Shown: positions 3,001 through 60,904, counted from the first letter of the stretch. The stretch is DNA of 64,000 bases from Mayamaea pseudoterrestris (GCA_027923505.1 BROI01000002.1:744001-808000); one strand, 5' to 3'. Notes: generated by a model from the letters alone, not told the origin. Translations and numbers: made by a program.

Positions 3001-5133
3001 GCACACCCATCACAGTTCCCAGCACTTTGCCATCTTACAAACCCTTTGTAGATGGCATGGAGTCTCCAAGTCAATTGCCATCTGGAAGTCCAGCCATGGG
3101 GGCTGCCACTGAAGTGCCATCTTTGTTGCCAAGTGGTTATCCGATCACAGCTTCCTTCGCATTGCCCTCTAGTACACCAGCTGTGGGTCTAGCAGAGGCG
3201 CCATCTTCGTTGCCAAGCAGCACACCCATTACAGTTCCCAGCACTTTGCCATCTTACAAACCCTTTGTAGATGGCATGGAGTCTCCAAGTCAATTGCCAT
3301 CTGGAAGTCCAGCCATGGGGGCTGCCACTGAAATGCCATCTTTGTTGCCAAGTGGTTATCCAATCACAGCTTCCTCTGCATTGCCCTCTAGTACACCAGC
3401 TGTGGGTTTAGCAGAGGCGCCATCTTCGTTGCCAAGCAGCACACCCATTACAGTTCCCAGCACTTTGCCATCTTACAAACCCTTTGTAGATGGCATGGAG
3501 TTTCCAAGTCAATTGCCATCTGGAAGTCCAGCCATGGGGGCTGCCACTGAAGTGCCGTCTTCGTTGCCAAGTGAGTTTCCAATCACAGCTTCCTCCACAT
3601 TGCCTTCTCATACACCAGCTGAGGGTCCAGCAGAGACGCCATCGTCGTTGCCAAGCAGCACACCAATTACAGCACCTACAGGTTCTCCTTCCCAGAGCCC
3701 AGTCAATGATCCCACAAAAATGCCTTCTGAATCACCAACATATGCACCCTTGGCAATTCCTACCCACATGCCTACGAGCGCACCAATTGAAGCCCCTACA
3801 AAAGTAAGTCTACGCTTTGCCGCAGTGTTGTTACCACATATATGTTCTCATAACCATGTTTTCTTTGTGTAGACCCCAACTAACGCGCCAAGCCAAGCTC
3901 CTACGGACAATCCAACAAAGGTATTTAAGTTAAAGCTTTGCCATTGTTGCACTCTCCCAGTTTCACTCATGCTGTCCCATTTCTTTTCACAGGAACCAAC
4001 AAAGGTACCAAGCCAAGCACCTACTGACAATCCCACAAAGGTAAAAGCTTTATAGCTTCTCAATTGTTGCACACTTATTGTTAAGCTTCACACTCCTAAC
4101 GACCTAATTTTGTACACAGAAACCAACAGGTGTACCAAGCAAAGCTCCGACTGCCCAGCCCACAAAGGTAAGTTGGCAAGGCTTGTACATCCTCGCACCT
4201 TGCTAAGTGTTTAATGCTCAGCAGGCACTTGTGTACCTACAGGATCCAACAAAGGTACCAAGCAAAGCTCCAACTGCCAAGCCAACAAAGGTAAGACTGT
4301 CATGGCTTTTTTGTTGCCGCACATTTTTGAGCTTCATATTCTCAGTGACACACACTACTACACAGAAACCAACCAAGAAACCCACCAAGAAACCTAGCAA
4401 AGCTCCTACAAAAAGTCCCACTGCGTCCTCATCTTGTGATGTTCAACGACAGTGCTGGGATGGATATAGACGTTGGGACAATCGCATTTTGTTTTGTAAA
4501 AAGAATGACAGGACTGCCTCATGCATAGAGCCCAAATCCCTTGGAGGCCAACAGAAGGGTGGTTATTGCGGGAGATGTAGAAGTGACCGTAATGATGATT
4601 TTGTCAAAGCGACATTTGGTGATGATACAGAAAACCTTGCAGTTAAGCCAACGCAAGAGCCAGAGACAGCAAACAAGCCAGTGTCAGCAAGTCGCATACG
4701 GTCCACTGACGAGCCAACGGATCCTCCCAGGACCAGAGAGCCCACTGATCCGCCCAGAACAAGAGAGCCCACTGATCCGCCCAGAACAAGAGAGCCAACT
4801 GATCCATTCAGGACCAGAGAGCCAACTGATCCTCCAAGGACACGAGAACCGACTGATCCACCAAGGACTAGGGAGCCAACTGATCCACCCAAAACAAGAG
4901 AGCCAACTAATCCTCCAAGGACACGAGAGCCAACTGATCCACCAAGGACTAGGGAGCCGACTGATCCTCCCAGGACCAGAGAGCCAACTGATCCGCCCAG
5001 AACGAGAGAGCCAACTAACCCTCCAAAAACTGACGAACCGACTAATCCGCCAAGAACCGAAGAACCAACCAATCCTCCAAAAACAGAGGAACCTACGCGA
5101 CAACCAGAGCCTGAAGCGGAGCCAACTGTATAA
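1..5133 (+). CDS. Type-II membrane mucin-like (Pro/Thr/Ser-rich) surface protein, paralog A; 5'-partial. Exons <1-265, 350-3803, 3873-3920, 3993-4040, 4120-4167, 4243-4290, 4366-5133
   Basis: ORFs 24-269, 327-3872 and 4207-5133 join in frame through GT..AG introns (AA|GTAAGT at 265/266, TAG| at 349; AAA|GTAAGT at 3803/3804, etc.). One hydrophobic helix (IAVKVVIAVAVGVAASAVGITAGVL), a long PTS stalk, a 6-Cys module and 9-aa repeats. Colinear with the paralog at 9316-13695. Confidence 0.85.
2190..3700 (+). repeat. Coding tandem repeats of ~56-73 aa (ATEVPSLLPSG...EAPSSLPSS) in the mucin A stalk
   Basis: GCCACTGAAGTGCCCTCTTTGTTGCCAAGTGG recurs with variants; the last copies have a 219-bp period (AGTCTCCAAG at 3061 and 3280). 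Boundaries are approximate. Confidence 0.9.
4711..5088 (+). repeat. 14 x 27-bp coding repeat (EPTDPPRTR)
   Basis: Units counted directly in the translation of ORF 4207-5133. Confidence 0.95.
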
Positions 5134-45659: not shown

Positions 45660-48410
45660 TCAACTTGCATCAAAATCTATCGTAGCCGTGATAATGGAAG
45701 CAAACAGTCTTACCTCGTCCAATAAATGGTCAGCATCCGACGTCCCTAACTCATCGACAGAAAGTGTCAGCTTGACCCGCTTAATCGGAGGGGCTGAAGT
45801 GTCTCCATTTCCGTTCTTGTCGCTGCTTATGCATTTAAAGCACGACAAGGCGACGGATGTTCGTGTTGGTGGATGGAATGGGGAATTAACTGTCATCGAC
45901 ACATGAAGTGGCACAATTTTAAGAAATGCATCATTCGCCGCGGCGACAAACGAACAAAAGTTTTGCTGTACATGAGATGTCTTCTTAGTCACAGCATCCG
46001 TTTTTACTTGTGCCTCAATCAATTCTTGGTCCAAGAAAACACTTATAGGAGGAGTCGGGAGGAACGCCAAATCGTCCATCGCAGGAACTGGATCGCCTGC
46101 GGCATCAATGACGGCGCCCAAGCCCAGTCCCGCACCCACTGCAATCGGAGTCAACCCGTACAGCGCAGCCGCTCCGCAACATTTAGTCAGAGACAGCTTA
46201 ACATCAGCCGCTGAGGACAAAATGGCTCGCTCGCGTAGTGTGCTAGACTTGTCATCAAAGTCATCCCATTCTCCCCCAATGCCAATGCGCTCTCCTAAAA
46301 TATTCATTGAGCGCACCAATCCATCAAAGAGCTGACGAACAGCTCGTCCACTTGAGGTAGCCGCCGCGGCTCGTCTTCGATTCGACGGCAAGGCAGCAAT
46401 TCTCACAGACATTGACTCGCTCGCTGTCTCACTGTTGCATGCAAGCTCGCCAAGCAACTTGGTTTGACGAGAAAATGTGGGAGTAAATGATCCAGTGCGG
46501 GTGTCACATTCCAGTCGAAACAAAATGGACATGCGGTAATTTATATGATTCTCTTCATCTCTGACATATCCATGATAATCAATTCGAGCAGTCACAGCAA
46601 TACTTCCACGATGAGCAGTCAACATCATCCAGCTGGGTAAAAGTCGGCTTTGCGTGTTCTGCAGCGTTTTAACGACAGCCGAACACCTTCGTACTGCACA
46701 AAGCCGCGTTGCTGCCAAGAGTGCGTTGCTAACCGACAATTCTAATGGATTGGAAGTTGACTCGATAATTTCATGACCAATGGCTCGCAGATATGGATCA
46801 GTATTGATCTGCTCCAACATGGACCGACCGCCACTTAATAATACGCGGATGCCAAAATTCACTTGTGCAGAAATTATTAATCGCAGCTGACTCGTTTTCG
46901 TTGCATCGGATTGACGATGATCAAACTCAGCGTGAGTTTCTGCCGCACCAGGAGCACCCTCACTCATTGTCAGTTCTCCCATTGACGGCGCACCAAACGA
47001 ATCATCCACTCTCCAAAACGACACTGTCACAGCTCCCAAGAGCCCGTCGTTGGCATTCCCTGCTGCATTGCCGTCAAAGAAGCGCACCGGATCAACGTGA
47101 ACCGCGTGCGTCGCGGCAGCAGCCACGGCACCCCAAACGCCTCGTCGCAAGGCTTGCGCCTGCGCCGACAGCAATTCTAGCTGCCACGATAGTGCAAACG
47201 TATGCGCAACCTCAAAGAGCGCCTGCAGTGGTTGTGCTGGCGTATCGTCCATGTCATCCATGTCGACATCTCCGGAAGCATCGCTTGTCGAAGCACTCTT
47301 TCGCTGCTTATATTCTACTTCTTGCTTTGCCATGGCTCTGGCCGCCAAACGATGCAAATCGTAACGCTGCCTATGTGAACTCTCCAGCTGATGCGTAAAT
47401 TCTCCCGTTTTGGCGTGAACGCTCACGTCGAGCGAAAGCAACGTCCATGTCGGTTCGTCCTCATCCACTTCATCGCCGCCGCTGCTGCTCGAAAAGACGG
47501 TTAACAGTGCCATGATTGGGTACTGCGGCTCATTGTCATTGTCGTCATCATTTCGAATTGCAGTATTATGTATGTTCTTTGGTGTCCCGTATACCAATCT
47601 TACAATACCTCCGCGAACAATGAGCTTCCACAAGGGAGGTGGCATGTCACCCTTCCGCCGCCGCCGCCAACCCACTTCTCCGTTCACCAGCTTGCGCCTA
47701 ACCACCAACTCCCACTCCTGCTGCAGTCTCGCCTTGCTCCACTGCGTCTCAACTGTTGCATTACTACTTAGTTTCAAGTTACTTGGCAAATCGTACCAGC
47801 CTCGACCAATCATGACATCCAGCGCCCCGAACAAGTCATGCGGCGGCGCCCTCGCGGAAAACAATTGCCCATGAAAAAAGTACAGCATATCCTGCGCCTC
47901 ATCGGCCTGCTGCCAGTGCGAGTGCGCGTGCCGCAACGTTTTTCCGCAGAGTGACACGATGCGCGACAGGGCCGTGGTGGCGTTGGAGGCGGTCAATGCG
48001 GCAACGTGCGTCAAGCTTTTCGTGTGTGCGTGCAGCCGCCAGACGAGTTCGTGCCGGCGCTGCGCGAAGGAGAGATTGGACATTTGCTCACGTATTTTGC
48101 TGCTAGTTGCTGCTGCTGTATTGCTTTCTTCCGCGGCTGCTGCAGCGTCATCCTCGTTGTTATTGAAGCCGGTCGTCGTTCCAGTCGCCGCCATGGTCAC
48201 GACTTCAAGCTCGCCATGCGCCATATTGTAAAAGTCCGAGTACAAGGCATCCGTGGACGCCAGCAAGACTTGGGTCAATGGTGACACCAGTAGACTCCCA
48301 TCGGTGGGATCGACGGATAGTTCGAGGCGACGAGGTGTCACTGGTTGCTCTCGCTTTGAGTAGTAGGGTGATGACGTTGCGGCGCTGCCATTGTAGTCAT
48401 ACGTTGACAT
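45660..48410 (-). CDS. MED14: Mediator complex subunit 14-like
   Basis: FFHGQLFSARAPPHDLFGALDVM..GWYDLPS matches the Med14 N-terminal motif. First ATG at 48410. Confidence 0.7.
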   Translation of the reverse strand: MSTYDYNGSAATSSPYYSKREQPVTPRRLELSVDPTDGSLLVSPLTQVLLASTDALYSDFYNMAHGELEVVTMAATGTTTGFNNNEDDAAAAAEESNTAAATSSKIREQMSNLSFAQRRHELVWRLHAHTKSLTHVAALTASNATTALSRIVSLCGKTLRHAHSHWQQADEAQDMLYFFHGQLFSARAPPHDLFGALDVMIGRGWYDLPSNLKLSSNATVETQWSKARLQQEWELVVRRKLVNGEVGWRRRRKGDMPPPLWKLIVRGGIVRLVYGTPKNIHNTAIRNDDDNDNEPQYPIMALLTVFSSSSGGDEVDEDEPTWTLLSLDVSVHAKTGEFTHQLESSHRQRYDLHRLAARAMAKQEVEYKQRKSASTSDASGDVDMDDMDDTPAQPLQALFEVAHTFALSWQLELLSAQAQALRRGVWGAVAAAATHAVHVDPVRFFDGNAAGNANDGLLGAVTVSFWRVDDSFGAPSMGELTMSEGAPGAAETHAEFDHRQSDATKTSQLRLIISAQVNFGIRVLLSGGRSMLEQINTDPYLRAIGHEIIESTSNPLELSVSNALLAATRLCAVRRCSAVVKTLQNTQSRLLPSWMMLTAHRGSIAVTARIDYHGYVRDEENHINYRMSILFRLECDTRTGSFTPTFSRQTKLLGELACNSETASESMSVRIAALPSNRRRAAAATSSGRAVRQLFDGLVRSMNILGERIGIGGEWDDFDDKSSTLRERAILSSAADVKLSLTKCCGAAALYGLTPIAVGAGLGLGAVIDAAGDPVPAMDDLAFLPTPPISVFLDQELIEAQVKTDAVTKKTSHVQQNFCSFVAAANDAFLKIVPLHVSMTVNSPFHPPTRTSVALSCFKCISSDKNGNGDTSAPPIKRVKLTLSVDELGTSDADHLLDEVRLFASIITATIDFDAS

Positions 48411-48539: not shown

Positions 48540-48567
48540 GATGTCGCAGCGCAACCAAACCAATGGT
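48540..48567 (+). promoter_or_regulatory. 28-bp CCAAT-containing motif GATGTCGCAGCGCAACCAAACCAATGGT, copy 1
   Basis: Exact match to 49513-49540; 124 nt upstream of the ATG at 48692. Confidence 0.55.
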
Positions 48568-49512: not shown

Positions 49513-49540
49513 GATGTCGCAGCGCAACCAAACCAATGGT
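49513..49540 (+). promoter_or_regulatory. 28-bp CCAAT-containing motif, copy 2
   Basis: Exact match to 48540-48567. It would lie 113 nt upstream of the ATG at 58715 if the retrotransposon and one TSD copy are removed. Confidence 0.55.
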
Positions 49541-49595
49541 CTCGATTAAAATCTCATCGTACCGGTACAAGTACCCAGGCTTCCCTTCTCCGCCG

Positions 49596-49896
49596 AGTCG
49601 AAACAATTAAGGTTCAGGCCCTGCCAGTGTCCGTTTGTTTCGGTTGATCCTCATGGCTGGATATCTGTTAATATCCAGTATCTGTGAATACTCAAGTTAC
49701 TTAAGCTACAGAAGCAAGCCGACGTTACAAACACGTCGGCAACGGTCCCCTTAAAGTAGCGGTAACAACTAAATCAAATCATTCTATTGCAAAGTACACG
49801 CAATCGTCTCGTTCCCCTCTTCTTACCAAGTTAGCAGACTGATCATCTCCTACTTGACCAAGTACTCAAGGTAACTCGACACAAGTTGCATTGATA
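49596..49896 (+). repeat. LTR 1 (301 bp, AGTCG...TGATA)
   Basis: Directly follows TSD CGCCG; identical to LTR 2 by eye. Confidence 0.97.
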
Positions 49897-49910
49897 GGTT
49901 ATTCGTCCCA
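49897..49910 (+). other. Putative primer-binding site GGTTATTCGTCCCA (second copy 51862-51875)
   Basis: Abuts the LTR end and begins GGTTAT, like the half-tRNA(iMet) PBS of Drosophila copia (GGTTATGGGCCCAG). Confidence 0.6.
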
Positions 49911-49965
49911 ATCACGCGCCCTACTGCCGCTACAAAATCTCGTTCTAGACCCCGAGAAAAGCATC

Positions 49966-51612
49966 ATGTCTACCGACAACAACGACACCGACACGGAGCA
50001 GTACTTCGACACTCCTCCTCCTAAACCCCGAGCTGGCTCTCCAACATCTGCTGCAGCTGATCTTGCCACGCTCATCACAGCTCTCAAGTCGATTCCATCC
50101 GACCAGCTTAAGATCCTCCTCCAAGCCGTCCAACCGACCGACGCGTCGTCGCCTGGAGACTCTCCTCCCAAGGATGAAACCTCTATTCCAACGGCCAACG
50201 AATATGTTTCCCTCATTGGTGGTTACCTCGATGCCGAGCGCAAGATTGCCTTCTGTGGAGGCAAACCGAATCTTGACTACACGCTCCCCCAAGTGCTCGA
50301 GGACGACCCGCTCGCCAAGCACATCCCCAAGACGCCAGCTTGTCACCGCGATTTGACAATGAAGCGTGCTGCTCAGGATTACGCCATTCGCATTGCTTTC
50401 AAGCCTTCCATTGGCAAGTTAGAGAAGGCGATGCCGATGTTCGCCTGGGGCGAGCTCATCCTTCGTGCGCTTGAAACGACTGGCGGCGATTCCGTCACTT
50501 ACTCGCTGTCGAGAGACAACAAGACGCGCGTTAGTGTTTGTACCAACTTTGATGTACTCACGCTCGCTCACGTTATCGCTCAAAGCAAGAAGGATGTCGC
50601 CAATTGGCGTCCAATGGACCACGAGAACAGCTCGATGGCGATCGAGTTCGTGTTGAATCACTTGAGCACGGCGATCCAACAGATTGTCGAGCCTCGCCGA
50701 AAGGAAGATGATACCTTCGCTATCTTCTTTATGCGCATCGCTCAAGCCAACGCTGATCTTTCATACGAAGCTGCCGACAAGATGAAGGCAGAGCTCCGTG
50801 CTTACAAATTGACCGACGTTTCCTACCAAGACGTTCACCATTTTGGTGCCAAGTTCCTCAACACTGAGCGCCAGCTTCACAATGGCAAACGCTGGGACCA
50901 CTCCCTTGGATTAATCTTCATTAGAGAGCTCTCCAAGTGTCCTTCGGAAGTTATGCGTGTAACGTTCATTGGCATTGGAGAACGGTACGACACTGCTCTT
51001 CGTGAAATCAATCCCCTCTCCTACGACGAGCAGCGCTCTCGCATGTTCAGTTTAAACGTTCATATCTCCCAGTTGGTTGAACGCGCTGACGATCTTTACG
51101 CTCAGATCAAAGCAGTTGATGGAGGATGGCCTCCGCTTGTCAATATTGTCGACAAGAAAGCGCCCGATATCAACTCGTTGACGAAACTCAGCCACGCCGA
51201 GCAAGCTGCTCTCATCTCAAGCGGCCAAGTTGACATCAACAATCTCGTTCAATCCAAGGTCAAAGAGCTCCGCACAAAGGACAAGAAGCAGTTGGAGGCT
51301 TACAAGAAGCGATTCGCCAAGCAGTCGCCAACTGGCGACACCAAGGCTCCAAACACGACTCCTTCTGGCGATTCCACCAAGACCGCCGAAAAGCGAGCTG
51401 AACGCCCTTTACCAGCATGGCGCACAAAGCCGCCTGCTGCCAACAATAAAGACGAAGTCAAGGAGGTTGGCAAGTACAAGTTCCAGTGGTGCGACAAGTG
51501 CTCCAAGTGGGTGTGGAATCATACGTCTGCAACGCACAAATCCAAGTCGCCCGAGGCAAGAGTCGAAACAATTAAGGTTCAGGCCCTGCCAGTGTCCGTT
51601 TGTTTCGGTTGA
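49966..51612 (+). CDS. gag: Gag copy 1; C-terminal 26 aa replaced by 17 aa read from LTR 2
   Basis: Identical translation to Gag copy 2 up to KSKSPEA, then RVETIKVQALPVSVCFG*. Confidence 0.9.
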   Translation: MSTDNNDTDTEQYFDTPPPKPRAGSPTSAAADLATLITALKSIPSDQLKILLQAVQPTDASSPGDSPPKDETSIPTANEYVSLIGGYLDAERKIAFCGGKPNLDYTLPQVLEDDPLAKHIPKTPACHRDLTMKRAAQDYAIRIAFKPSIGKLEKAMPMFAWGELILRALETTGGDSVTYSLSRDNKTRVSVCTNFDVLTLAHVIAQSKKDVANWRPMDHENSSMAIEFVLNHLSTAIQQIVEPRRKEDDTFAIFFMRIAQANADLSYEAADKMKAELRAYKLTDVSYQDVHHFGAKFLNTERQLHNGKRWDHSLGLIFIRELSKCPSEVMRVTFIGIGERYDTALREINPLSYDEQRSRMFSLNVHISQLVERADDLYAQIKAVDGGWPPLVNIVDKKAPDINSLTKLSHAEQAALISSGQVDINNLVQSKVKELRTKDKKQLEAYKKRFAKQSPTGDTKAPNTTPSGDSTKTAEKRAERPLPAWRTKPPAANNKDEVKEVGKYKFQWCDKCSKWVWNHTSATHKSKSPEARVETIKVQALPVSVCFG

Positions 51613-51861
51613 TCCTCATGGCTGGATATCTGTTAATATCCAGTATCTGTGAATACTCAAGTTACTTAAGCTACAGAAGCAAGCCGACGTTACAAACACG
51701 TCGGCAACGGTCCCCTTAAAGTAGCGGTAACAACTAAATCAAATCATTCTATTGCAAAGTACACGCAATCGTCTCGTTCCCCTCTTCTTACCAAGTTAGC
51801 AGACTGATCATCTCCTACTTGACCAAGTACTCAAGGTAACTCGACACAAGTTGCATTGATA
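51561..51861 (+). repeat. LTR 2 (internal, 301 bp)
   Basis: Same sequence as LTR 1, followed by the same PBS-like sequence. Confidence 0.97.
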
Positions 51862-51930: not shown

Positions 51931-53604
51931 ATGTCTACCGACAACAACGACACCGACACGGAGCAGTACTTCGACACTCCTCCTCCTAAACCCCGAGCTG
52001 GCTCTCCAACATCTGCTGCAGCTGATCTTGCCACGCTCATCACAGCTCTCAAGTCGATTCCATCCGACCAGCTTAAGATCCTCCTCCAAGCCGTCCAACC
52101 GACCGACGCGTCGTCGCCTGGAGACTCTCCTCCCAAGGATGAAACCTCTATTCCAACGGCCAACGAATATGTTTCCCTCATTGGTGGTTACCTCGATGCC
52201 GAGCGCAAGATTGCCTTCTGTGGAGGCAAACCGAATCTTGACTACACGCTCCCCCAAGTGCTCGAGGACGACCCGCTCGCCAAGCACATCCCCAAGACGC
52301 CAGCTTGTCACCGCGATTTGACAATGAAGCGTGCTGCTCAGGATTACGCCATTCGCATTGCTTTCAAGCCTTCCATTGGCAAGTTAGAGAAGGCGATGCC
52401 GATGTTCGCCTGGGGCGAGCTCATCCTTCGTGCGCTTGAAACGACTGGCGGCGATTCCGTCACTTACTCGCTGTCGAGAGACAACAAGACGCGCGTTAGT
52501 GTTTGTACCAACTTTGATGTACTCACGCTCGCTCACGTTATCGCTCAAAGCAAGAAGGATGTCGCCAATTGGCGTCCAATGGACCACGAGAACAGCTCGA
52601 TGGCGATCGAGTTCGTGTTGAATCACTTGAGCACGGCGATCCAACAGATTGTCGAGCCTCGCCGAAAGGAAGATGATACCTTCGCTATCTTCTTTATGCG
52701 CATCGCTCAAGCCAACGCTGATCTTTCATACGAAGCTGCCGACAAGATGAAGGCAGAGCTCCGTGCTTACAAATTGACCGACGTTTCCTACCAAGACGTT
52801 CACCATTTTGGTGCCAAGTTCCTCAACACTGAGCGCCAGCTTCACAATGGCAAACGCTGGGACCACTCCCTTGGATTAATCTTCATTAGAGAGCTCTCCA
52901 AGTGTCCTTCGGAAGTTATGCGTGTAACGTTCATTGGCATTGGAGAACGGTACGACACTGCTCTTCGTGAAATCAATCCCCTCTCCTACGACGAGCAGCG
53001 CTCTCGCATGTTCAGTTTAAACGTTCATATCTCCCAGTTGGTTGAACGCGCTGACGATCTTTACGCTCAGATCAAAGCAGTTGATGGAGGATGGCCTCCG
53101 CTTGTCAATATTGTCGACAAGAAAGCGCCCGATATCAACTCGTTGACGAAACTCAGCCACGCCGAGCAAGCTGCTCTCATCTCAAGCGGCCAAGTTGACA
53201 TCAACAATCTCGTTCAATCCAAGGTCAAAGAGCTCCGCACAAAGGACAAGAAGCAGTTGGAGGCTTACAAGAAGCGATTCGCCAAGCAGTCGCCAACTGG
53301 CGACACCAAGGCTCCAAACACGACTCCTTCTGGCGATTCCACCAAGACCGCCGAAAAGCGAGCTGAACGCCCTTTACCAGCATGGCGCACAAAGCCGCCT
53401 GCTGCCAACAATAAAGACGAAGTCAAGGAGGTTGGCAAGTACAAGTTCCAGTGGTGCGACAAGTGCTCCAAGTGGGTGTGGAATCATACGTCTGCAACGC
53501 ACAAATCCAAGTCGCCCGAGGCAAACAACTTCATTCTTGCCGACTCCGCCAACGTGTTTGAAGAATTCACCGACTACGCTCCCTTCGCTGACAGTCAGGA
53601 ATGA
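51931..53604 (+). CDS. gag: Gag copy 2 (complete) with CCHH zinc-knuckle variant
   Basis: ORF between PBS and pol; WCDKCSKWVWNHTSATH; ends GAA TGA CTT. Confidence 0.9.
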   Translation: MSTDNNDTDTEQYFDTPPPKPRAGSPTSAAADLATLITALKSIPSDQLKILLQAVQPTDASSPGDSPPKDETSIPTANEYVSLIGGYLDAERKIAFCGGKPNLDYTLPQVLEDDPLAKHIPKTPACHRDLTMKRAAQDYAIRIAFKPSIGKLEKAMPMFAWGELILRALETTGGDSVTYSLSRDNKTRVSVCTNFDVLTLAHVIAQSKKDVANWRPMDHENSSMAIEFVLNHLSTAIQQIVEPRRKEDDTFAIFFMRIAQANADLSYEAADKMKAELRAYKLTDVSYQDVHHFGAKFLNTERQLHNGKRWDHSLGLIFIRELSKCPSEVMRVTFIGIGERYDTALREINPLSYDEQRSRMFSLNVHISQLVERADDLYAQIKAVDGGWPPLVNIVDKKAPDINSLTKLSHAEQAALISSGQVDINNLVQSKVKELRTKDKKQLEAYKKRFAKQSPTGDTKAPNTTPSGDSTKTAEKRAERPLPAWRTKPPAANNKDEVKEVGKYKFQWCDKCSKWVWNHTSATHKSKSPEANNFILADSANVFEEFTDYAPFADSQE

Positions 53605-56600
53605 CTTGAATGCGGAAGGACGCCGCCTCTTCTTCTCTTTGTTCAAGCGTTTTGTTTCAAGACTGCCTTCGCCCGGTTCATCCTCAAGCCCGTCGCCGCC
53701 ATGCTCCTCTTGGCTGCACTGAGTATGCTTCCTACCGTCCTACCGGCCGTCCTTGAATCAGTTTGCGCTTGCGCATTGAGTGGACTTGCGCTCAATCAAT
53801 GGTTCTGGTCTTCGACTCTCGCCAACGCCTCTTCGTTTGCTTGCAATGCGCTCAGTCTTTCGCGCGCTGCGCTCGCTCTTCCAACGTTTCTTCGCTGGTT
53901 TTGGTTTGAGTTACTTACGACTACGCTCGAGAGGGAGATGATGTTGCTGTGGATGACAGTTATCCTCGAAGCATTAGCTCTTTCCTATCACCTTTCTCCG
54001 AGTCGCCCCCAACCAACTAGAGACAAGCTCCGTCAAAAACAAAAACACTACGACAAACGCAAGAACTCTACTGACGAACGTCAACTTTCCGTCCAATCAA
54101 AACGTCGCATTCGCCAACAGAAACGATTGAAAAGAACGCTCCGTGTCCCACTCATCTATAGCTATCACCGTTCCTATCCAACAAGATTGCGCAGCGACGG
54201 CATCTATCGTCAAAGAGTCCATTGCCCTCGTTTCGAGACCCTTCCAGACGCCAAGACTGTTCCCATTGAAGTCATTAAGGGGTACAATGGCTTGTTTACG
54301 ACCCTCGTCGAGTCCAAGGCATGCCGATGGTTCGACAATCCCATCTCCCAATTTAATTCCCTCGTCGAGTACCCCAGCCTCATGGACTACCTTGGCGCGC
54401 TCGCTCCTCTCGAGTTTAACAACGTTACCTTCCAAGCAGACTCTACAGTCAATGACTTTGCATTCTCTCCAAGCAATGCTGCTCGATCCTCCACGTTCGA
54501 AATCATTCACGACAGCGGCGCTTCTGCAACCGTCGCCAATCACTTGGATGACTTCGTCCCTGGTACTTACCGCAAAAGCACAAAGAAGATCATTGCAAAA
54601 GGACTCGCATCTGGATTGCAAGTGGTCGGCCATGGCATAATTGACTGGACTCTTGATGGCAACGACGGCAAGCCGCTACGAGTCCGTTGCCAAGCTCTCT
54701 ACATTCCCGACAGTCCGCGCAAGTTACTGTGCCCTCAACAGTACACGCGATACCACAAGCTACACGATCGCGAGGCGAATTTAACGTTTGCTATTAATGG
54801 AGAAGGATTCTGGTACTTTGATCTACACAAACAAGGACGCCCGTCCCTTCTTCACGGCTCGCTCGATCCAGTCACCAACCTACCGACTTCTACAGCAATT
54901 GCAACTCAAGATAGCCCTGAAACACTTCATGCTGAGTTTAATGCATGTGTAACAGACGCTCGAAACGCCAACCTGTCGCCCGCTCAAAAGCTCCTTCTTC
55001 AATGGCATTTCAAGTGCGGCCACGCCAGCTTCCGCAGCATTCAAAACCTTCTACGCTCTGGTCGCCTCGCTACAAGCGATGAGATGCGCAAGCTCCATAA
55101 AGCAGCAGCCTCCTGTGAGATCCCGCGGTGCGCTGCTTGCGAATTTGGAAAGGCAAAACGTCGACCCGCGCCCGGAACGAGTCGTCAACCAACGCCTCGA
55201 GCCGATGGATCGCTCAAGCAAGGAAAGCTTCGACCAGGACAACAAGTCTCCGTTGATCACTACATCTGCAGTCAAAAGGGACGCCTCTATACGTCTCGCG
55301 GCAAAACGTCGACCGACTCAATGTTCAGCGGCGGCGCGCTCTTTGTTGACCACGCAAGTGGATACGTCTTCGTCGACCATCAAGTTGTTATGAACACTCA
55401 TGAAACTCTTCGCTCCAAGTGGAACTTTGAAAAGGTTGCAAGGGATTGCGGCGTTTCAATTGAAAGCTACTTGTCTGATAACGCTGCGTGTTTCACCAGT
55501 CACGAGTACACCGAGCATCTTTCCAAATTCAAGCAGACGACTGTCTTTGCAGGCGTCGGCGCCCATCATCAAAACGGAATAGCAGAACGAAACATTCAAA
55601 CCATTATGAATATGGCAAGAACGATGCTTATCCATGCTAACATGCACTGGACTGACGTTGATGACATGTCGCTCTGGCCGATGGCCGTCGACTACGCAGT
55701 TTACATCTTCAATCGCATGCCAAACGTCGCTACTGGCCAAGCTCCCATTGACATCTTTACTGGTACCATCTGGGCAAGTCACAAGTTCCATCACCTCCAC
55801 GTTTTTGGATCGCCCGCCTACGTTCTTGATCCTCGCATGCAAGACGGCAAGTCCATTCCTCGTTGGAAAGTGCGCTCACGCCGCGGGATCTTTGTCGGCT
55901 TCTCCAGCAAGCACTCAGCTACCGTTCCACTTGTCCTCAATCTGAATACATTAACAATCAGTCCTCAGTATCACGTTACGCATGACGATTGGTTTACTAC
56001 AGTTGACGCTCTTCCTGATTCGCCTCCCAATTTTACGGACGACAGATGGACGAGTCTCTTTGCGACAAGCAAGTACATCTATCCGTTCGACGACGATGAC
56101 CCCCTTCCTGCTCTCAATCCTGAGTGGGAGGACAACTTTGATGCCTCAGCTGCTCGCCAAGACGCTATCCATGCAGCACAGACTCCTTCTACTGCTCCAG
56201 TTTTACCTGCTCCCGCCGCTCCGCCAGCGGTTGCTCCAGTTCCTTCCAATGATTCTCCGCCCGTCACAGACGCTCCGCCTACGAATCAGAGGGAGACAAG
56301 GCCTCCTGAAATTCATTCGCCTCACGAAACTACAGAACCACAGCTTCAGAGGGAGCAGAGGGAGCAATTAGACTACATTGATGGCAATCCTTTGCGCTCG
56401 TCCGCACCTACACCGCGTGTCGCAGCCGATGTCACAGTCAATCCCAGTCCACCAAACGCATCAAACGAGTCCACGATCCTGACGACAGCTCCCACGCTCG
56501 CACAACAACCACAACAACAAGCAAGTGATCCTCCTTTACGACGCTCTGCACGTTTACGTGATCGACCACCTGAGCCAGTCATTACTCGAGCTCAGAGACT

Positions 56601-58293
56601 CCGTCATGCTCGCGACGAAATGATTGAAACCAATATGCTGTTAGCAGAGCATGCGCACGCGGAATACCCTTACTCAATTGGTTTAACGCAAGTGCTACTC
56701 GCCTCGACGAACGATCCCGACACACTCCGCTACGATGAAGCGATGCGCGCTGATGACTCTGAAGAGTTCAGGAAAGCCGCAGGAATAGAGATCAAGTCGC
56801 TCGAAGACCATGGAACATGGGTTGTCATACCAAGGACCAAGGTTCCTCAAGGAAAGCAAATCATCCCCGGCACATGGACCTTTCGCCGCAAGCGAACGCC
56901 CAGCGGTGAGCTTAAGAAACACAAAGCTCGCTTCTGCGTTCGAGGAGACCTACAGAAGGACGTATTCGAAACGTTTGCACCAGTCGTTCAATGGAGCACC
57001 GTTCGTGTCCTCATGGTATTCGCCTTGACGTTCGGCTACAAAACCAAGTGCATTGATTTCACCAACGCTTTCGTGCAAGCAGAACTAAAGGATCCAATCT
57101 ACATTCAATTCCCTCGCGGCTTTCAACACAAAGACGGTCATCAATCAAGCGATTACTGTTTAAAGTTGCTCAAGTCGTGCTACGGAACGAAGATCGCCCC
57201 AAAGCTCTTCTACGAACACTTACGCGACCGACTCGTCGAGCTCGGGTTCACTCAAAGCTTCTTCGATCCCTGTCTCTTCTACCGCAATGGACAAATCATC
57301 GCCTGTTACGTTGACGATTGCATCTGCGTCGCCCGTACCGACAAGGAGCTACAGACCATCATCGACGACCTTCGCTCCAAGTTCACGCTCACCGAAGAAG
57401 GCGATCTCAGTCAATATCTTGGCATTGATATAAAGCGCTCTGGCAAGTCTTTCACGCTCACTCAAACGGGTCTGATTGACAGTATCATTCAAGCTACTGG
57501 AATGGAGGCTGCTAACGGAGTCTTCACGCCCGCCAACGACACGCTCGGCAAGAACGCCGATTTACCTGATCATCAAGAGAGCTGGAGCTACAACTCGCTA
57601 ATCGGCAAGCTTCTTTATCTCGCTGGTAACTCGCGTCCTGATATTGCTTTCGCTGTCAATCAATGCGCAAGATTCAATCACTGTCCTAAAAAGCCACACT
57701 TTGACGCCGTTAAACGCATCGTCCGCTATCTCATCAAGACTCGTGAACAAGGACTCATCATGACGCCCGAAGGCAACCTCACGGTTGACTGTTACGTTGA
57801 TGCCGACTTTGCTGGTTTATATGGAAAGGAAGACGGTCAAGACCCAGTGTGCGCTCAATCCCGTACCGGATACCTCATTATGCTCGGTGGCTGCCCCGTC
57901 TTTTGGCAAAGCAAGCTACAAACCGAAATTGCTCTATCTACAATGGAATCCGAGTACGTTGCTCTTTCTTCAAGTCTTCGCCAAGTCATTCCTATCCAAG
58001 CAATCGTCAAGGAAATGGGAAACAAAATGAAGCAACGCATTCAAGTAAACGCGCGCTCCTACTGCACCGTTTACGAAGACAACGCAGGCTGCCTCGCGCT
58101 CGCCAATGCCCCTCATCTAACGCCTCGCTCTCGCCATTACGCTACTAAGTATCACCACTTTAAGCACCACGTAAAGCAGGGCACGATCAAAGTCGTTAAG
58201 ATTGATACCAAGGAGCAACGAGCCGATATCTTTACAAAGGCGCTGCCCCAAGTCACATTCGAGCACCTCCGCCGTCTCCTTATGGGATGGTAA
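53605..58293 (+). CDS. pol: Pol (hydrophobic/basic spacer - protease - integrase - RT - RNase H); open in the gag frame directly after the gag UGA (first ATG 53701)
   Basis: PR HDSGAS. IN WHFKCGH..CAAC, VSVDH, LSDNA, NGIAER. RT KHKARFCVRG, CIDFTNAFVQ, YVDD. RH YVDADFAG, ESEY, EDN, ADIFTK. Confidence 0.97.
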   Translation, partial: LECGRTPPLLLFVQAFCFKTAFARFILKPVAAMLLLAALSMLPTVLPAVLESVCACALSGLALNQWFWSSTLANASSFACNALSLSRAALALPTFLRWFWFELLTTTLEREMMLLWMTVILEALALSYHLSPSRPQPTRDKLRQKQKHYDKRKNSTDERQLSVQSKRRIRQQKRLKRTLRVPLIYSYHRSYPTRLRSDGIYRQRVHCPRFETLPDAKTVPIEVIKGYNGLFTTLVESKACRWFDNPISQFNSLVEYPSLMDYLGALAPLEFNNVTFQADSTVNDFAFSPSNAARSSTFEIIHDSGASATVANHLDDFVPGTYRKSTKKIIAKGLASGLQVVGHGIIDWTLDGNDGKPLRVRCQALYIPDSPRKLLCPQQYTRYHKLHDREANLTFAINGEGFWYFDLHKQGRPSLLHGSLDPVTNLPTSTAIATQDSPETLHAEFNACVTDARNANLSPAQKLLLQWHFKCGHASFRSIQNLLRSGRLATSDEMRKLHKAAASCEIPRCAACEFGKAKRRPAPGTSRQPTPRADGSLKQGKLRPGQQVSVDHYICSQKGRLYTSRGKTSTDSMFSGGALFVDHASGYVFVDHQVVMNTHETLRSKWNFEKVARDCGVSIESYLSDNAACFTSHEYTEHLSKFKQTTVFAGVGAHHQNGIAERNIQTIMNMARTMLIHANMHWTDVDDMSLWPMAVDYAVYIFNRMPNVATGQAPIDIFTGTIWASHKFHHLHVFGSPAYVLDPRMQDGKSIPRWKVRSRRGIFVGFSSKHSATVPLVLNLNTLTISPQYHVTHDDWFTTVDALPDSPPNFTDDRWTSLFATSKYIYPFDDDDPLPALNPEWEDNFDASAARQDAIHAAQTPSTAPVLPAPAAPPAVAPVPSNDSPPVTDAPPTNQRETRPPEIHSPHETTEPQLQREQREQLDYIDGNPLRSSAPTPRVAADVTVNPSPPNASNESTILTTAPTLAQQPQQQASDPPLRRSARLRDRPPEPVITRAQRLRHARDEMIETNMLLAEHAHAEYPYSIGLTQVLLASTNDPDTLRYDEAMRADDSEEFRKAAGIEIKSLEDHGTWVVIPRTKVPQGKQIIPGTWTFRRKRTPSGELKKHKARFCVRGDLQKDVFETFAPVVQWSTVRVLMVFALTFGYKTKCIDFTNAFVQAELKDPIYIQFPRGFQHKDGHQSSDYCLKLLKSCYGTKIAPKLFYEHLRDRLVELGFTQSFFDPCLFYRNGQIIACYVDDCICVARTDKELQTIIDDLRSKFTLTEEGDLSQYLGIDIKRSGKSFTLTQTGLIDSIIQATGMEAANGVFTPANDTLGKNADLPDHQESWSYNSLIGKLLYLAGNSRPDIAFAVNQCARFNHCPKKPHFDAVKRIVRYLIKTREQGLIMTPEGNLTVDCYVDADFAGLYGKEDGQDPVCAQSRTGYLIMLGGCPVFWQSKLQTEIALSTMESEYVALSSSLRQVIPIQAIVKEMGNKMKQRIQVNARSYCTVYEDNAGCLALANAPHLTPRSRHYATKYHHFKHHVKQGTIKVVKIDTKEQRADIFTKALPQVTFEHLRRLLMGW

Positions 58294-58350: not shown

Positions 58351-58651
58351 AGTCGAAACAATTAAGGTTCAGGCCCTGCCAGTGTCCGTTTGTTTCGGTT
58401 GATCCTCATGGCTGGATATCTGTTAATATCCAGTATCTGTGAATACTCAAGTTACTTAAGCTACAAAAGCAAGCCGACGTTACAAACACGTCGGCAACGG
58501 TCCCCTTAAAGTAGCGGTAACAACTAAATCAAATCATTCTATTGCAAAGTACACGCAATCGTCTCGTTCCCCTCTTCTTACCAAGTTAGCAGACTGATCA
58601 TCTCCTACTTGACCAAGTACTCAAGGTAACTCGACACAAGTTGCATTGATA
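58351..58651 (+). repeat. LTR 3 (301 bp)
   Basis: Differs from LTR 1/2 at one position seen (A at 58466 vs G at 49711 and 51676); followed by TSD CGCCG. Confidence 0.97.
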
Positions 58652-58714
58652 CGCCGCTGCTGCGTGCCATTTCCATATCGGTAGTCAACTGCAGAAAGGA
58701 TTTCAGACATCATC

Positions 58715-60076
58715 ATGTTCAAGTCGAATACAGCTATGCATATATGCCTATTTCTATTCGCTGCTTTGTTTTGCAGCAGTGACGCTTTCGTGGTAAACTC
58801 TTTCAGTCACGCCGTTCCAGCAAGAAACAGTGTCGACTCGAGGAAACAGCATGATGCACAATCTTTGCTGTATGCCGCCAATGAACAATCATCCGAAGCC
58901 ATCAAGCAAAACATTGAAGTCATGCGACTAGAAGCGAAGCGACGATTGGAGGCGCTCCATGTACGCATGGAGGAGTTGAAGCAGCATCAAGTTGAAACGC
59001 AAGAGAAGACTAGTGAGCAAACTATAACAGTGCGCGACAAGGACGGCTCGGCTACTGCAGAATTGACAGCTACAAGCAATGCAGCAATAGTAGACACTGT
59101 ACGGACGCAAAACGCCGACAATAACTATTCACTCGATAGCATGGAAGGGGATTGGGTGGAGTCAACCATTGCATCATCACAATCAGCAACAGCTGCTGCT
59201 ACCTCACCAGTAGTCGCAGTGCCGCCATATCTAAATACTCGCATTGACACGGATCTCTTGACAGACACGCGATGGAAGGTGGCCTACAATATTGGCCGCG
59301 AAGCTGGAACATGGATGCCAAAGGAGTGGGGCAGGTCGGGAGACCGATTGATATTTCAAATTGTCATGGACTTTACCAATGAACCGTCGTTTGACCGGGA
59401 CGACTTTTTCCAAGGCGTTGCTGGTGCCAAAGTACTCAATGTCGTGGAAGCGTGGGTGCTTCCAAGTGGTGTGGGTCGAAATAGTCATGGCAGGCAAGCC
59501 ATGCGCGTCAAAGCAACGGGCGCCTACAAGATACTACCGGGCCTTGGGCCGTGCGGCACCAACATTGTGCGCTTCTACGTGGAACTTGAGGATCAAGTCA
59601 GTGCAACACCCGATTCGGACGTTTCCTGTCCTCAAGGACGAGTGTATGCCACCTGCGGGTACTTTCCAAAGCGCTCCAAACAAAATGGAGTTGCCTCGTG
59701 GAAGGAACGAATGGATGATGAGCATCATGCGTACGTCGTTCGATACGAGCAACTGCAGCGACAGATTGAAGCCGATGGCCGGCTCTTTAGCTTGGAAAAG
59801 ATAAAGCTCATGAAGGAATCCTACATGGTGAGACAAGAATTGGAGCAAGCAACCATGCGTCTGCAGGAGGCTCGTCAGCGAGACCCCGAAAGGTCGCAGC
59901 TCCGCATGACGCGCGATGGCCGCGTCGGATTGACCAAAGAGGGTGGTGTTTGTCGCAAGGTCCAAAAGGGAGTGGCAATGGAGTATCATATACTGGGACG
60001 CATTGAGCTGGCTTGCATTGACAAGCATGAGGCGCATGACGACTACCAAGAATTGGTTCATCAGCTGCATCCCTGA
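58715..60076 (+). CDS. Plastid-targeted hypothetical protein with coiled coils
   Basis: 453-aa ORF; signal peptide plus SDA-FVV; globular region RWKVAYNIGREAGTWMPKEWGRSGDRL. Confidence 0.8.
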   Translation: MFKSNTAMHICLFLFAALFCSSDAFVVNSFSHAVPARNSVDSRKQHDAQSLLYAANEQSSEAIKQNIEVMRLEAKRRLEALHVRMEELKQHQVETQEKTSEQTITVRDKDGSATAELTATSNAAIVDTVRTQNADNNYSLDSMEGDWVESTIASSQSATAAATSPVVAVPPYLNTRIDTDLLTDTRWKVAYNIGREAGTWMPKEWGRSGDRLIFQIVMDFTNEPSFDRDDFFQGVAGAKVLNVVEAWVLPSGVGRNSHGRQAMRVKATGAYKILPGLGPCGTNIVRFYVELEDQVSATPDSDVSCPQGRVYATCGYFPKRSKQNGVASWKERMDDEHHAYVVRYEQLQRQIEADGRLFSLEKIKLMKESYMVRQELEQATMRLQEARQRDPERSQLRMTRDGRVGLTKEGGVCRKVQKGVAMEYHILGRIELACIDKHEAHDDYQELVHQLHP

Positions 60077-60178: not shown

Positions 60179-60904
60179 TCATAGTTTTGAATCATTGTCA
60201 TTATTCGCAAACAAGGATCGATACGCCGCCGCTTCCTCGGCCATTTGCGCTAACGTTCGATCCGTTCGATCCTTGTCGTCAGCGACTGCTAGCGTGCTGT
60301 TCACAACAAGTTCATCACGCGGAGCCCATACACTCAACTCATCGTAAACGTCATCGTTGCGTTCAAAGTCATACGCGCGTCGCGGCAAAATGTGTACGTG
60401 AACATGCGGAACGCTCTGTCCAGCTGCTCGGCCATCCTGCACAGCCACGTTGAAGGCATTGCAATCTGTATAGTGTTGCTTTAGCATGGTTTGCGTCGCC
60501 CGCACCACCAGCCAAAGGTCGATATATTCTTCGTTTGTCAAGTCTTGCAGCTGTGGAACGACGCGTTTCGGACTGACCAACACGTGGCCCGAAACGATGG
60601 GACGCAGATTGCAAAAGCCAAAGGATAGGTGCGTGCGGTGAAAGATGGAATCAGCCGGAATAATGAACCTCCCAAACAACAAATCTCCTTCCTCCTTCAA
60701 GTCTTTGGATGCTGTCATACTAGTTGTTGTCAATGATTTTCGTATTAATGAGATTCTTGCTTGACTTGACGCAGTAGAGGCGCGAGGAAAAAGTGCAAAG
60801 GATGTTGCTGCTCCTCCACCTTGTCTTCTTCCAAGACGAAAGCCGCAACTGGTACGCGATGAAAGACAGTATACACAGAAAGGGTAGCTATGTCGGTTCA
60901 GCAT
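60179..60904 (-). CDS. FHIT: Bis(5'-adenosyl)-triphosphatase (FHIT/Hnt2 family HIT protein) with N-terminal extension
   Basis: NLRPIVSGHVLV, VQDGRAAGQSVPHVHVHILPR, NDDVY, RTLAQMAEEA..YR. Confidence 0.92.
   Translation of the reverse strand: MLNRHSYPFCVYCLSSRTSCGFRLGRRQGGGAATSFALFPRASTASSQARISLIRKSLTTTSMTASKDLKEEGDLLFGRFIIPADSIFHRTHLSFGFCNLRPIVSGHVLVSPKRVVPQLQDLTNEEYIDLWLVVRATQTMLKQHYTDCNAFNVAVQDGRAAGQSVPHVHVHILPRRAYDFERNDDVYDELSVWAPRDELVVNSTLAVADDKDRTDRTLAQMAEEAAAYRSLFANNDNDSKL

Follow-up and report, generated by a model that had tools for sequence, protein, structure and literature searches.

What is a segment of some 300 codons, first hydrophobic and then strongly basic, doing between the Gag and protease regions of a retrotransposon? 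The question is raised by a Ty1/copia long terminal repeat (LTR) retrotransposon of the diatom type that lies in a 64,000-nt stretch of the Mayamaea pseudoterrestris genome (GCA_027923505.1 BROI01000002.1:744001-808000), which at its full length we call the window and from whose first letter all positions are counted. A sequence-only reading of the window had pointed to the segment, at 53605-54510, and had suggested that Gag-Pol, but not Gag, would carry a membrane anchor together with a nuclear localization signal (NLS) or RNA-binding patch, and that particles could then assemble on the endoplasmic reticulum (ER) or the nuclear envelope. We read the segment as one case of an accessory, probably membrane-inserted module that diatom-type Ty1/copia polyproteins share across the lineage, in which hydrophobic helices are followed by a basic patch and then by an aromatic-proline motif.

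The segment comprises 302 stop-free codons and is open solely in the frame that continues gag across a TGA at 53602-53604 into a 1562-amino acid (aa) Pol open reading frame (ORF); each of the other five frames has 5-22 stops. Counting residues of the segment and of Pol from the first codon 3′ of the UGA (53605 = aa 1), aa 1-130 are 64% hydrophobic with 13 charged residues, the remaining Pol being 37% hydrophobic, and aa 134-180 hold 19 K/R vs. 4 D/E. Kyte-Doolittle hydropathy over 19 residues (KD19) peaks at 1.75 (aa 9-27), 2.17 (aa 32-50) and 1.60 (aa 112-130), whereas Gag of the same element does not exceed 1.11 and the remaining Pol does not exceed 1.42; aa 66-108 are only mildly hydrophobic. 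At least 11 copies in the same genome cover the segment wholly or partly, and the ratio of nonsynonymous to synonymous change (pN/pS) was obtained from pooled distinct codon changes vs. the window copy over 10 copies; it is not tree-based and includes dead copies, and pN is therefore expected to be inflated. The parts of the region are as follows.

53602-53604 (+): in-frame UGA, next base C, between gag and pol; the same codon in 9/9 other copies spanning it
53605-53691 (+): codons 1-29 behind the stop, with 1 synonymous and 0 replacement changes among copies; candidate RNA signal for stop bypass, holding the marginal helix H1 (53629-53685)
53692-53760 (+): helix H2 (aa 30-52), the best transmembrane (TM) candidate, KD19 2.17, no K/R; 10 synonymous vs. 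2 conservative replacement changes
53761-53928 (+): variable, mildly hydrophobic loop (aa 53-108), pN/pS 0.39, one N-x-S/T sequon
53929-53994 (+): helix H3 (aa 109-130), KD19 1.60, aligned with the conserved AP-x-L-W helix of relatives; W116 nearly invariant
54004-54144 (+): polybasic patch, 19 K/R, 4 D/E, predicted helix
54154-54198 (+): conserved motif like H-R-x-Y-P-x-x-L-R, here YHRSYPTRLR
54199-54510 (+): spacer 5′ of the protease, pN/pS 0.23-0.24

The hydropathy values have to be read against a soluble helix of the reverse transcriptase (RT), which in 36 full-length relatives reaches KD19 1.6 in 32/36, 2.0 in 4/36 and 2.2 in 0/36. As this soluble helix so often reaches 1.6, we rejected KD19 of at least 1.6 as proof of a TM span, and only H2 is a convincing span in the window copy by hydropathy alone, which gives one strong and two marginal helices where a hairpin asks for two spans; AlphaFold2 packs them without confidence.

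The segment is almost certainly a protein-coding, translated and conserved module. Its pN/pS is 0.26 (P 5.5e-11 vs. neutrality) and that of aa 1-130 is 0.25, the comparison regions being gag (0.13) and protease-integrase (PR-IN, 0.08); in finer windows H2 reaches 0.08 vs. 0.09 for the protease and 0.39 for the loop. Six of the 11 copies are fully open across the segment. The loop varies in the other copies also by an in-frame 66-nt duplication in one and a compensated -1/+1 shift in another. In five other families of the same genome the module gave pN/pS of 0.08 (P 2e-4), 0.26 (P 0.01), 0.40 (P 0.06) and 0.52 (P 0.08), with one uninformative pair. No joint across the segment was found in four contig sets, which do not bear on splicing, as they look like DNA because their contigs run into different flanks.

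The module is also found well beyond this genome. Relatives were searched for with PR-IN alone, and the linker between the knuckle-like motif at the Gag C-terminus and the protease was therefore not selected for. The best 120 of 708 homologues include 45 with both knuckle and protease, 70 that start after gag and 5 that lack a recognizable protease motif and were excluded. In the 45, linker KD19 is at least 1.6 in 42 and at least 2.0 in 33, whereas Gag regions reach 1.6 in 1/43 and 2.0 in 0/43, and PR-IN regions reach neither value (0/45); a value of at least 2.2 was seen in 22/36 linkers vs. 0/36 RT-RNase H (RT-RH) regions. The median linker measures 323 aa in the 45 relatives, and the module 250-430 aa. 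A metagenome set of 80 loci, which includes near-duplicates and overlaps the protein set, holds 31 loci with both landmarks; of these 31, 26 are single-ORF and 5 have an in-frame TGA, and the hydrophobic stretch is present in 29. After removal of 11 near-duplicates, 5 linkers of other length and 1 without any stretch, a de-replicated set of 56 was analyzed at a loose threshold of 1.4: the hydrophobic stretch precedes the most basic window in 54/56 linkers, and at least two stretches are present in 45/56. Loop length ranges from 0 to 84 aa with the flanking helices kept, and most relatives carry a strong net positive charge past the last stretch and a nearly neutral loop. The module is probably membrane-inserted. 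A conserved glycosylated loop as a general feature was considered and rejected (sequons in 6/56).

Alignments of the relatives give a shared order of knuckle, A-N-L, D-P-S-A-W, helix 1, a loop of any length, A-P-x-L-W helix, basic run and H-R-x-Y-P-x-x-L-R, with strict-pattern matches to the last two motifs of this order in 21/45 and 19/45. An A/V-N-x motif follows the knuckle in 24/39 relatives; copia proteases cut at A/V-N-x-like sites. Against a profile of 37 relatives' linkers, with the window excluded, the window segment scores 15.7 bits (best of 200 shuffles 5.7), and its W116 aligns with a near-invariant Trp. All five other sampled copia families of the same genome have hydrophobic-then-basic linkers, of which 1/5 scores well on the 37-linker profile.

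A second lineage, found with locus L058, is 33% identical in PR-IN. Its pre-protease regions of at least 250 aa reach KD19 1.6 in 38/48 and 2.0 in 19/48, as compared with 0/48 for PR-IN; 69 shorter regions and 3 without protease motif were tallied separately. Since the motifs of this lineage differ, a common origin of the two modules is not established. Many pre-protease regions of the L058 lineage (P0352-P0471) share a motif of their own, roughly R/K-W-x(5-6)-F/Y-P-x-x-W/F-x-x-L-S, and the lineage looks almost wholly two-ORF, the knuckle being in the same ORF in only 2/117.

What the sequence-only reading had seen thus holds up. The peptides it quoted lie between Gag and the DSGAS protease, as a hydrophobic and then a K/R-rich stretch. 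It had proposed a dN/dS comparison, and the pN/pS values among the copies point to purifying selection, both on the whole segment and on H2, where it is as strong as on the protease. Hydropathy, which it wished to see compared, is conserved across relatives, together with the layout of hydrophobic part, basic part and HRxYP-like motif. As to stops or frameshifts tolerated in active relatives, which it regarded as a point against itself, all five copies with a broken segment are broken elsewhere too.

How could such a module be used? We suggest that it tethers the polyprotein to a membrane and is later released, a mechanism for which we consider the case, argued from sequence, to be evenly balanced. 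Ribosomes that pass the UGA, or all ribosomes in single-ORF relatives, would expose the first hydrophobic helix and be brought to the ER. There, or in the outer nuclear membrane, the chain would insert co-translationally and form a hairpin that crosses the bilayer twice, its short loop lying in the lumen, and the basic patch would keep the C-terminal part, and with it PR-IN-RT-RH, cytosolic. Such a tether would hold the complex of genomic RNA and ribosome, together with the Pol precursor, at the ER or outer nuclear membrane, and would concentrate the protease for dimerization. Cutting of the flanks would then free Gag and the Pol enzymes for packaging into a particle that forms next to the membrane, with the basic patch and HRxYP motif probably gripping RNA during the hand-over. 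In single-ORF relatives the tether would release Gag in excess and keep most Pol on the membrane, and so would set the Gag:Pol ratio.

Two considerations of geometry bear on this proposal. Both Gag, which precedes the module, and the enzymes that follow it have to act on the cytosolic or nuclear face of the membrane, and the number of spans should therefore be even; with the usual two helices, a neutral loop and a basic C-terminal flank a hairpin would fit. In retroviral geometry the nucleocapsid (NC) points into the particle interior. As the anchor lies past NC and NC faces inside, a closed capsid could not easily hold a bilayer-bound chain, for which reason tether and release is favored; the anchor must probably be cut off before the capsid closes. 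That particles may assemble at the ER or at the nuclear envelope is a plausible idea. The basic patch may be an NLS, an RNA-binding region or a plain positive-inside signal, with all of which it is compatible. More tentatively, the hairpin could cause diatom copia elements to form their particles at the ER or nuclear envelope or to bud into it; the basic patch would guide the precursor, anchored and carrying integrase, towards the nuclear membrane, and the Gag:Pol ratio would be set by the anchor in single-ORF families and by UGA readthrough in stop-type families.

The support for a membrane tether includes purifying selection, linker hydropathy compared with controls, helices kept around a variable loop, the second lineage and the five same-genome families. 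Several findings weigh against it. In the window copy H1 and H3 are at the hydropathy level of the RT control and carry charges. Fewer than two hydrophobic stretches precede the basic patch in 11/56 linkers, loop sequons occur in only 6/56, and within the family the basic patch and the motif show no significant conservation (pN/pS 0.44, P 0.10). AlphaFold2 gives long helices over the hydrophobic and basic parts (pTM 0.33 and 0.32) without confident packing, and its second model is a single unbroken helix with no hairpin; at such pTM values we claim no fold for the segment. Finally, P0102, P0105, L114, L117, L129, L141 and the Phaeodactylum tricornutum family of P0029 lack the module or keep only a vestige, and it is therefore not essential to the whole group.

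The distribution of these module-less forms suggests that the module has been lost. In a FastTree phylogeny of 93 PR-IN sequences rooted on L058, several of them are nested among module-bearing ones; the tree recovers a large, mainly single-ORF clade (support 0.96), its deep nodes being weak, and the window falls outside that clade, among stop-type and Pol-only sequences. Two of the module-less loci, L114 and L117, share with L049, L050 and L053 long acidic low-complexity tails past the knuckle; in L114 and L117 the tail stops in frame about 65-70 codons 5′ of the protease, and no hydrophobic module is present.

The life cycle suggested by the sequence-only reading has a strong form, in which the module is retained and remodels the membrane: particles would bud into the ER or into the perinuclear space, or would wrap a vesicle, with the module as a mini-envelope within the polyprotein. 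The same hydropathy and conservation data speak for this, ER-targeted retroviral Gag is reportedly known from IAP, and in the single-ORF relatives every Gag would be born attached to the module. On the other hand, an anchor C-terminal to NC would come to lie on the side that faces the particle interior, Gag has no hydrophobic N-terminus, and the module would be present on just a minority of the chains made by stop-type families, and we regard budding as rather improbable.

We also consider it unlikely that the helices do not span the bilayer at all and form instead a monotopic or lipid-droplet-binding patch, or a soluble helical oligomerization domain that aids protease dimerization. This would account for the marginal, charged H1 and H3, for the equal hydrophobicity of the soluble RT helix, for the long continuous helices of the AlphaFold2 models and for hydrophobic moments of 0.25-0.37 in parts of aa 13-102. 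The 22/36 linkers above the range of the RT-RH controls argue against it, as do the positive charge past the last stretch with a near-neutral loop in most relatives, and a sequence that varies while its hydrophobicity is kept, as in membrane spans.

A further question is how the module comes to be translated, as in the window it lies behind a stop. A single in-frame stop separates gag and pol, conserved as TGA in all the copies compared. The stop-type junctions examined, in the window, L058, L069, L070/L071, L129 and L132, are all in-frame TGA. No stable RNA fold beyond shuffles was found 3′ of the UGA (z +0.9 to +1.3; -1.3 to +1.3 in five families) with a model that does not cover pseudoknots or long-range pairs, and codons 1-29 are nearly invariant despite the lack of a stable fold. 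For the claim that Gag-Pol but not Gag carries the anchor, the outcome is mixed. If the stop is read through, it applies to the window family and the other module-bearing stop-type families, where the module lies on the Pol side; it is not a general rule, as in the 26/31 metagenome loci that are single-ORF every primary product carries the module. L129 and L141 are a nearly identical family with a 48-aa knuckle-to-protease spacer; as L141 is open where L129 has its in-frame TGA, the stop in L129 may be a mutation and not a readthrough site.

Alternatively, the UGA could be a true stop. Pol would then be a protein of its own, made from an internal AUG or a shorter RNA and packaged in trans, with the module as its N-terminal signal or anchor. 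A signal-like stretch does begin at Met codons (aa 33 and 41), and the lack of a stable fold behind the UGA agrees with this. The case of Tca2 of Candida albicans speaks for both sides: gag and pol are in the same frame with a single UGA between them, the junction did not by itself bring about readthrough and contained a minor promoter, and yet Pol is made from gag-UGA-pol RNA by a non-canonical bypass mechanism, according to the accessible part of PMC2194720. That source also describes a possible pseudoknot and, in the same part, mentions no hydrophobic module, whereas the window element has no stable fold and carries about 300 codons with membrane-like helices before its protease. The textbook case of gag readthrough is MuLV (PMC5009743, in the passages available). 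In the window family no copy interrupts the frame between the stop and Met33, which is nearly free of changes, and one copy has Leu in place of Met33. Together with the uniform use of TGA at stop-type junctions and the presence of the module as an internal segment in single-ORF relatives, this leaves a separate Pol with only a small chance.

A fusogen like FAST or sORF2, cut free and moving particles between cells, e.g., at gamete fusion, is very unlikely. The sORF2/FAST-like proteins of MDG1 Gypsy elements, which are env-less LTR retrotransposons, do show a TM helix followed by a polybasic region (10.1101/2025.03.14.642691, in the part at hand), for which at least 3 K/R within 15 aa past the helix are expected, and the window segment has 5 K/R in aa 131-145, past H3. 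Those proteins are separate, single-pass products of 63-107 aa and often myristoylated, whereas the window module is larger, mostly multi-helix in its relatives and internal to a polyprotein; it is part of the 1562-aa ORF with no Met-Gly start or N-terminal MGxxxS/T, relatives usually have at least two helices around a loop of any length, no viral fold matches, and a basic patch past a TM helix is generic. That the segment is a non-coding, T/C-rich spacer or intron that merely reads as hydrophobic is largely refuted, since the 33% T of its hydrophobic part is enriched at codon position 2 (0.41), pN/pS runs from 0.08 to 0.26, most single-ORF relatives are open through 250-430 codons with shared amino-acid motifs, and the 5/11 copies with a break in the segment, which might be held in its favor together with low synonymous change in aa 109-212 as a hint of RNA constraint or recent copy exchange, are all broken outside it too. 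The synonymous change in question (53929-54240) amounts to 5 changes in 104 codons, about one quarter of the flanks; it may be due to an RNA element, e.g., a signal for packaging or processing, or to copies having recently exchanged sequence, and no RNA fold beyond shuffles was found in aa 109-212.

Database searches did not connect the module to known proteins. There was no Pfam match to the segment (best member matches at E 0.01-0.04 in single rows), no PDB sequence match below E 0.2, no match in a viral fold library at E ≤ 0.001, no usable match in the ESM Atlas and none among phage records; a profile search among longer proteins also gave no match, which is weak evidence by the tool's own note. 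With phmmer against 1.84 billion representatives, one protein (P0121) matched from residue 121 on, the remainder being mostly protease matches. In the genome itself no match lies outside the window's family, and at that sensitivity there is therefore no sign of a captured host gene. We found no description of a membrane module between Gag and protease of copia elements in the literature searched, with subscription journals and Repbase/GyDB largely outside reach.

The closest relatives by description are the copia elements of diatoms (CoDi), which share the PR-IN-RT-RH order, near-identical LTRs, 0-1 stop between gag and pol and a range of 5.2-8.1 kb, as far as the accessible text of PMC2806351 and, for Branch 1, of PMC2774666 goes. 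The module of the window element is not described there for CoDi: the word 'transmembrane' is absent (0 occurrences) from the main text of PMC2806351, and its available passages do not deal with a Gag-protease membrane module. Likewise, nothing bearing on the module was found in the accessible parts of PMC8220671 and PMC3758190. Within the copia class, a precedent for ER-linked assembly (the retrosome) is Ty1 of Saccharomyces cerevisiae, whose RNA undergoes SRP-dependent translation and seeds particle formation at the ER, and whose Gag passes through the lumen without a discernible signal or TM domain, according to the part of PMC3945221 available; unlike Ty1, the window element has a dedicated hydrophobic module past NC.

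Sireviruses and errantiviruses have env-like ORFs with predicted membrane helices, placed as a third ORF after pol. The window module differs from these by lying inside gag-pol, with nothing 3′ of pol.

The element itself is of a known kind and the module is new to the literature searched. A 250-430-aa unannotated module in most sampled relatives and in two deep lineages has been missed by Pfam, and diatom copia polyproteins are therefore mis-parsed. The cell biology of diatom copia elements, which predominate among the LTR retrotransposons described from model diatoms and become active under stress (PMC2806351, in its accessible text), probably differs from the textbook cytosolic particle. 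The module offers a handle on the origin of excess Gag in single-ORF copia elements, and on assembly-site choice and nuclear entry of LTR-retrotransposon particles, with the module-less families and the stop-type and single-ORF forms as natural controls. If the membrane-coupled reading is true, this life cycle would be new for LTR retrotransposons.

The element that hosts the module is laid out as follows.

49591-49595 (no strand): left target-site duplication CGCCG, partner at 58652-58656
49596-49896 (+): outer 5′ LTR, 301 nt, ending AG...TA instead of TG...CA
49897-51560 (+): exact second copy of leader and gag, truncated past the zinc-knuckle-like motif and fused to the middle LTR, without UGA and without module; part of a 1965-nt perfect repeat
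51561-51861 (+): middle LTR, i.e., the 5′ LTR of the full-length unit, with 1 mismatch vs. the 3′ LTR
51931-53604 (+): gag ORF, 557 aa plus TGA, KD19 maximum 1.11, pN/pS 0.13
53452-53508 (+): knuckle-like motif W-C-x2-C-x2-W...H-x4-H at the Gag C-terminus, common to relatives
54511-58293 (+): Pol core in copia order, with protease (DSGAS), GAG-pre-integrase, integrase, SH3-like, RT (RVT_2) and C-terminal RNase H region; stop TAA
58342-58350 (+): purine tract adjoining the 3′ LTR, read from the sequence
58351-58651 (+): 3′ LTR, 301 nt

The direct LTRs with a 5-bp target-site duplication and the PR-IN-RT-RH order with a copia-type RT are features of Ty1/copia (Pseudoviridae). In Pfam searches, RVT_2 matches at E 8.8e-40 (aa 1079-1310), after SH3_retrovirus, gag_pre-integrs and Pol_BBD, the gag_pre-integrs and Pol_BBD matches falling below the curated cut-offs. 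The 333 codons between knuckle and protease depart from the closeness that is typical, though not defining, of copia elements, and the 57 nt from the pol stop (58293) to the 3′ LTR (58351) leave no env-like third ORF. The only eukaryote names among the homologues are Phaeodactylum tricornutum and Fragilaria crotonensis, next to one label of a bacterial metagenome-assembled genome (MAG), and by its nearest named relatives the element fits CoDi. All three of its LTRs end AG...TA and not TG...CA; TG/CA ends are missing in three CoDi families (PMC2806351, in its accessible text).

The element contains three 301-nt LTRs because its 5′ LTR, leader and most of gag have been duplicated without mismatch over 1965 nt, giving the layout LTR-gag(part)-LTR-full unit-LTR within a single target-site duplication. 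As the LTRs are one base apart, the insertion is young. The upstream partial copy (49596-51560) ends just past the knuckle and is joined to the middle LTR via a 2-nt match to the purine tract. In two other copies (L065, about 2870-3550, and L066, about 2935-3615), one and the same insertion of 680 nt, bounded by long direct terminal repeats (TAGC...GCTA) and accompanied by a 4-bp duplication, lies at the 3′ end of gag, at window equivalents 53521 and 53491, 30 nt apart and adjoining the break of the window's partial gag. The insertion is a TRIM-like element, and the gag end a possible hot spot.

In L050 and L053, two families of the same genome, a signal-peptide-like stretch at the start of the module ends in A-D-A followed by F, which is not seen in the window family. 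Such an ADA-F site resembles the cleavage motif of diatom plastid targeting.

Just upstream of the element, a DUF1824-like ORF is flanked by a 28-nt perfect direct repeat (48540-48567 and 49513-49540, 973 nt apart). The host neighbors are a Med14-like gene at 45660-48407 (-), a HIT-domain gene at 60179-60775 (-) and, starting about 60 nt beyond the element at 58715-60076 (+), an ORF of 453 aa that has no Pfam match and whose N-terminus is hydrophobic.

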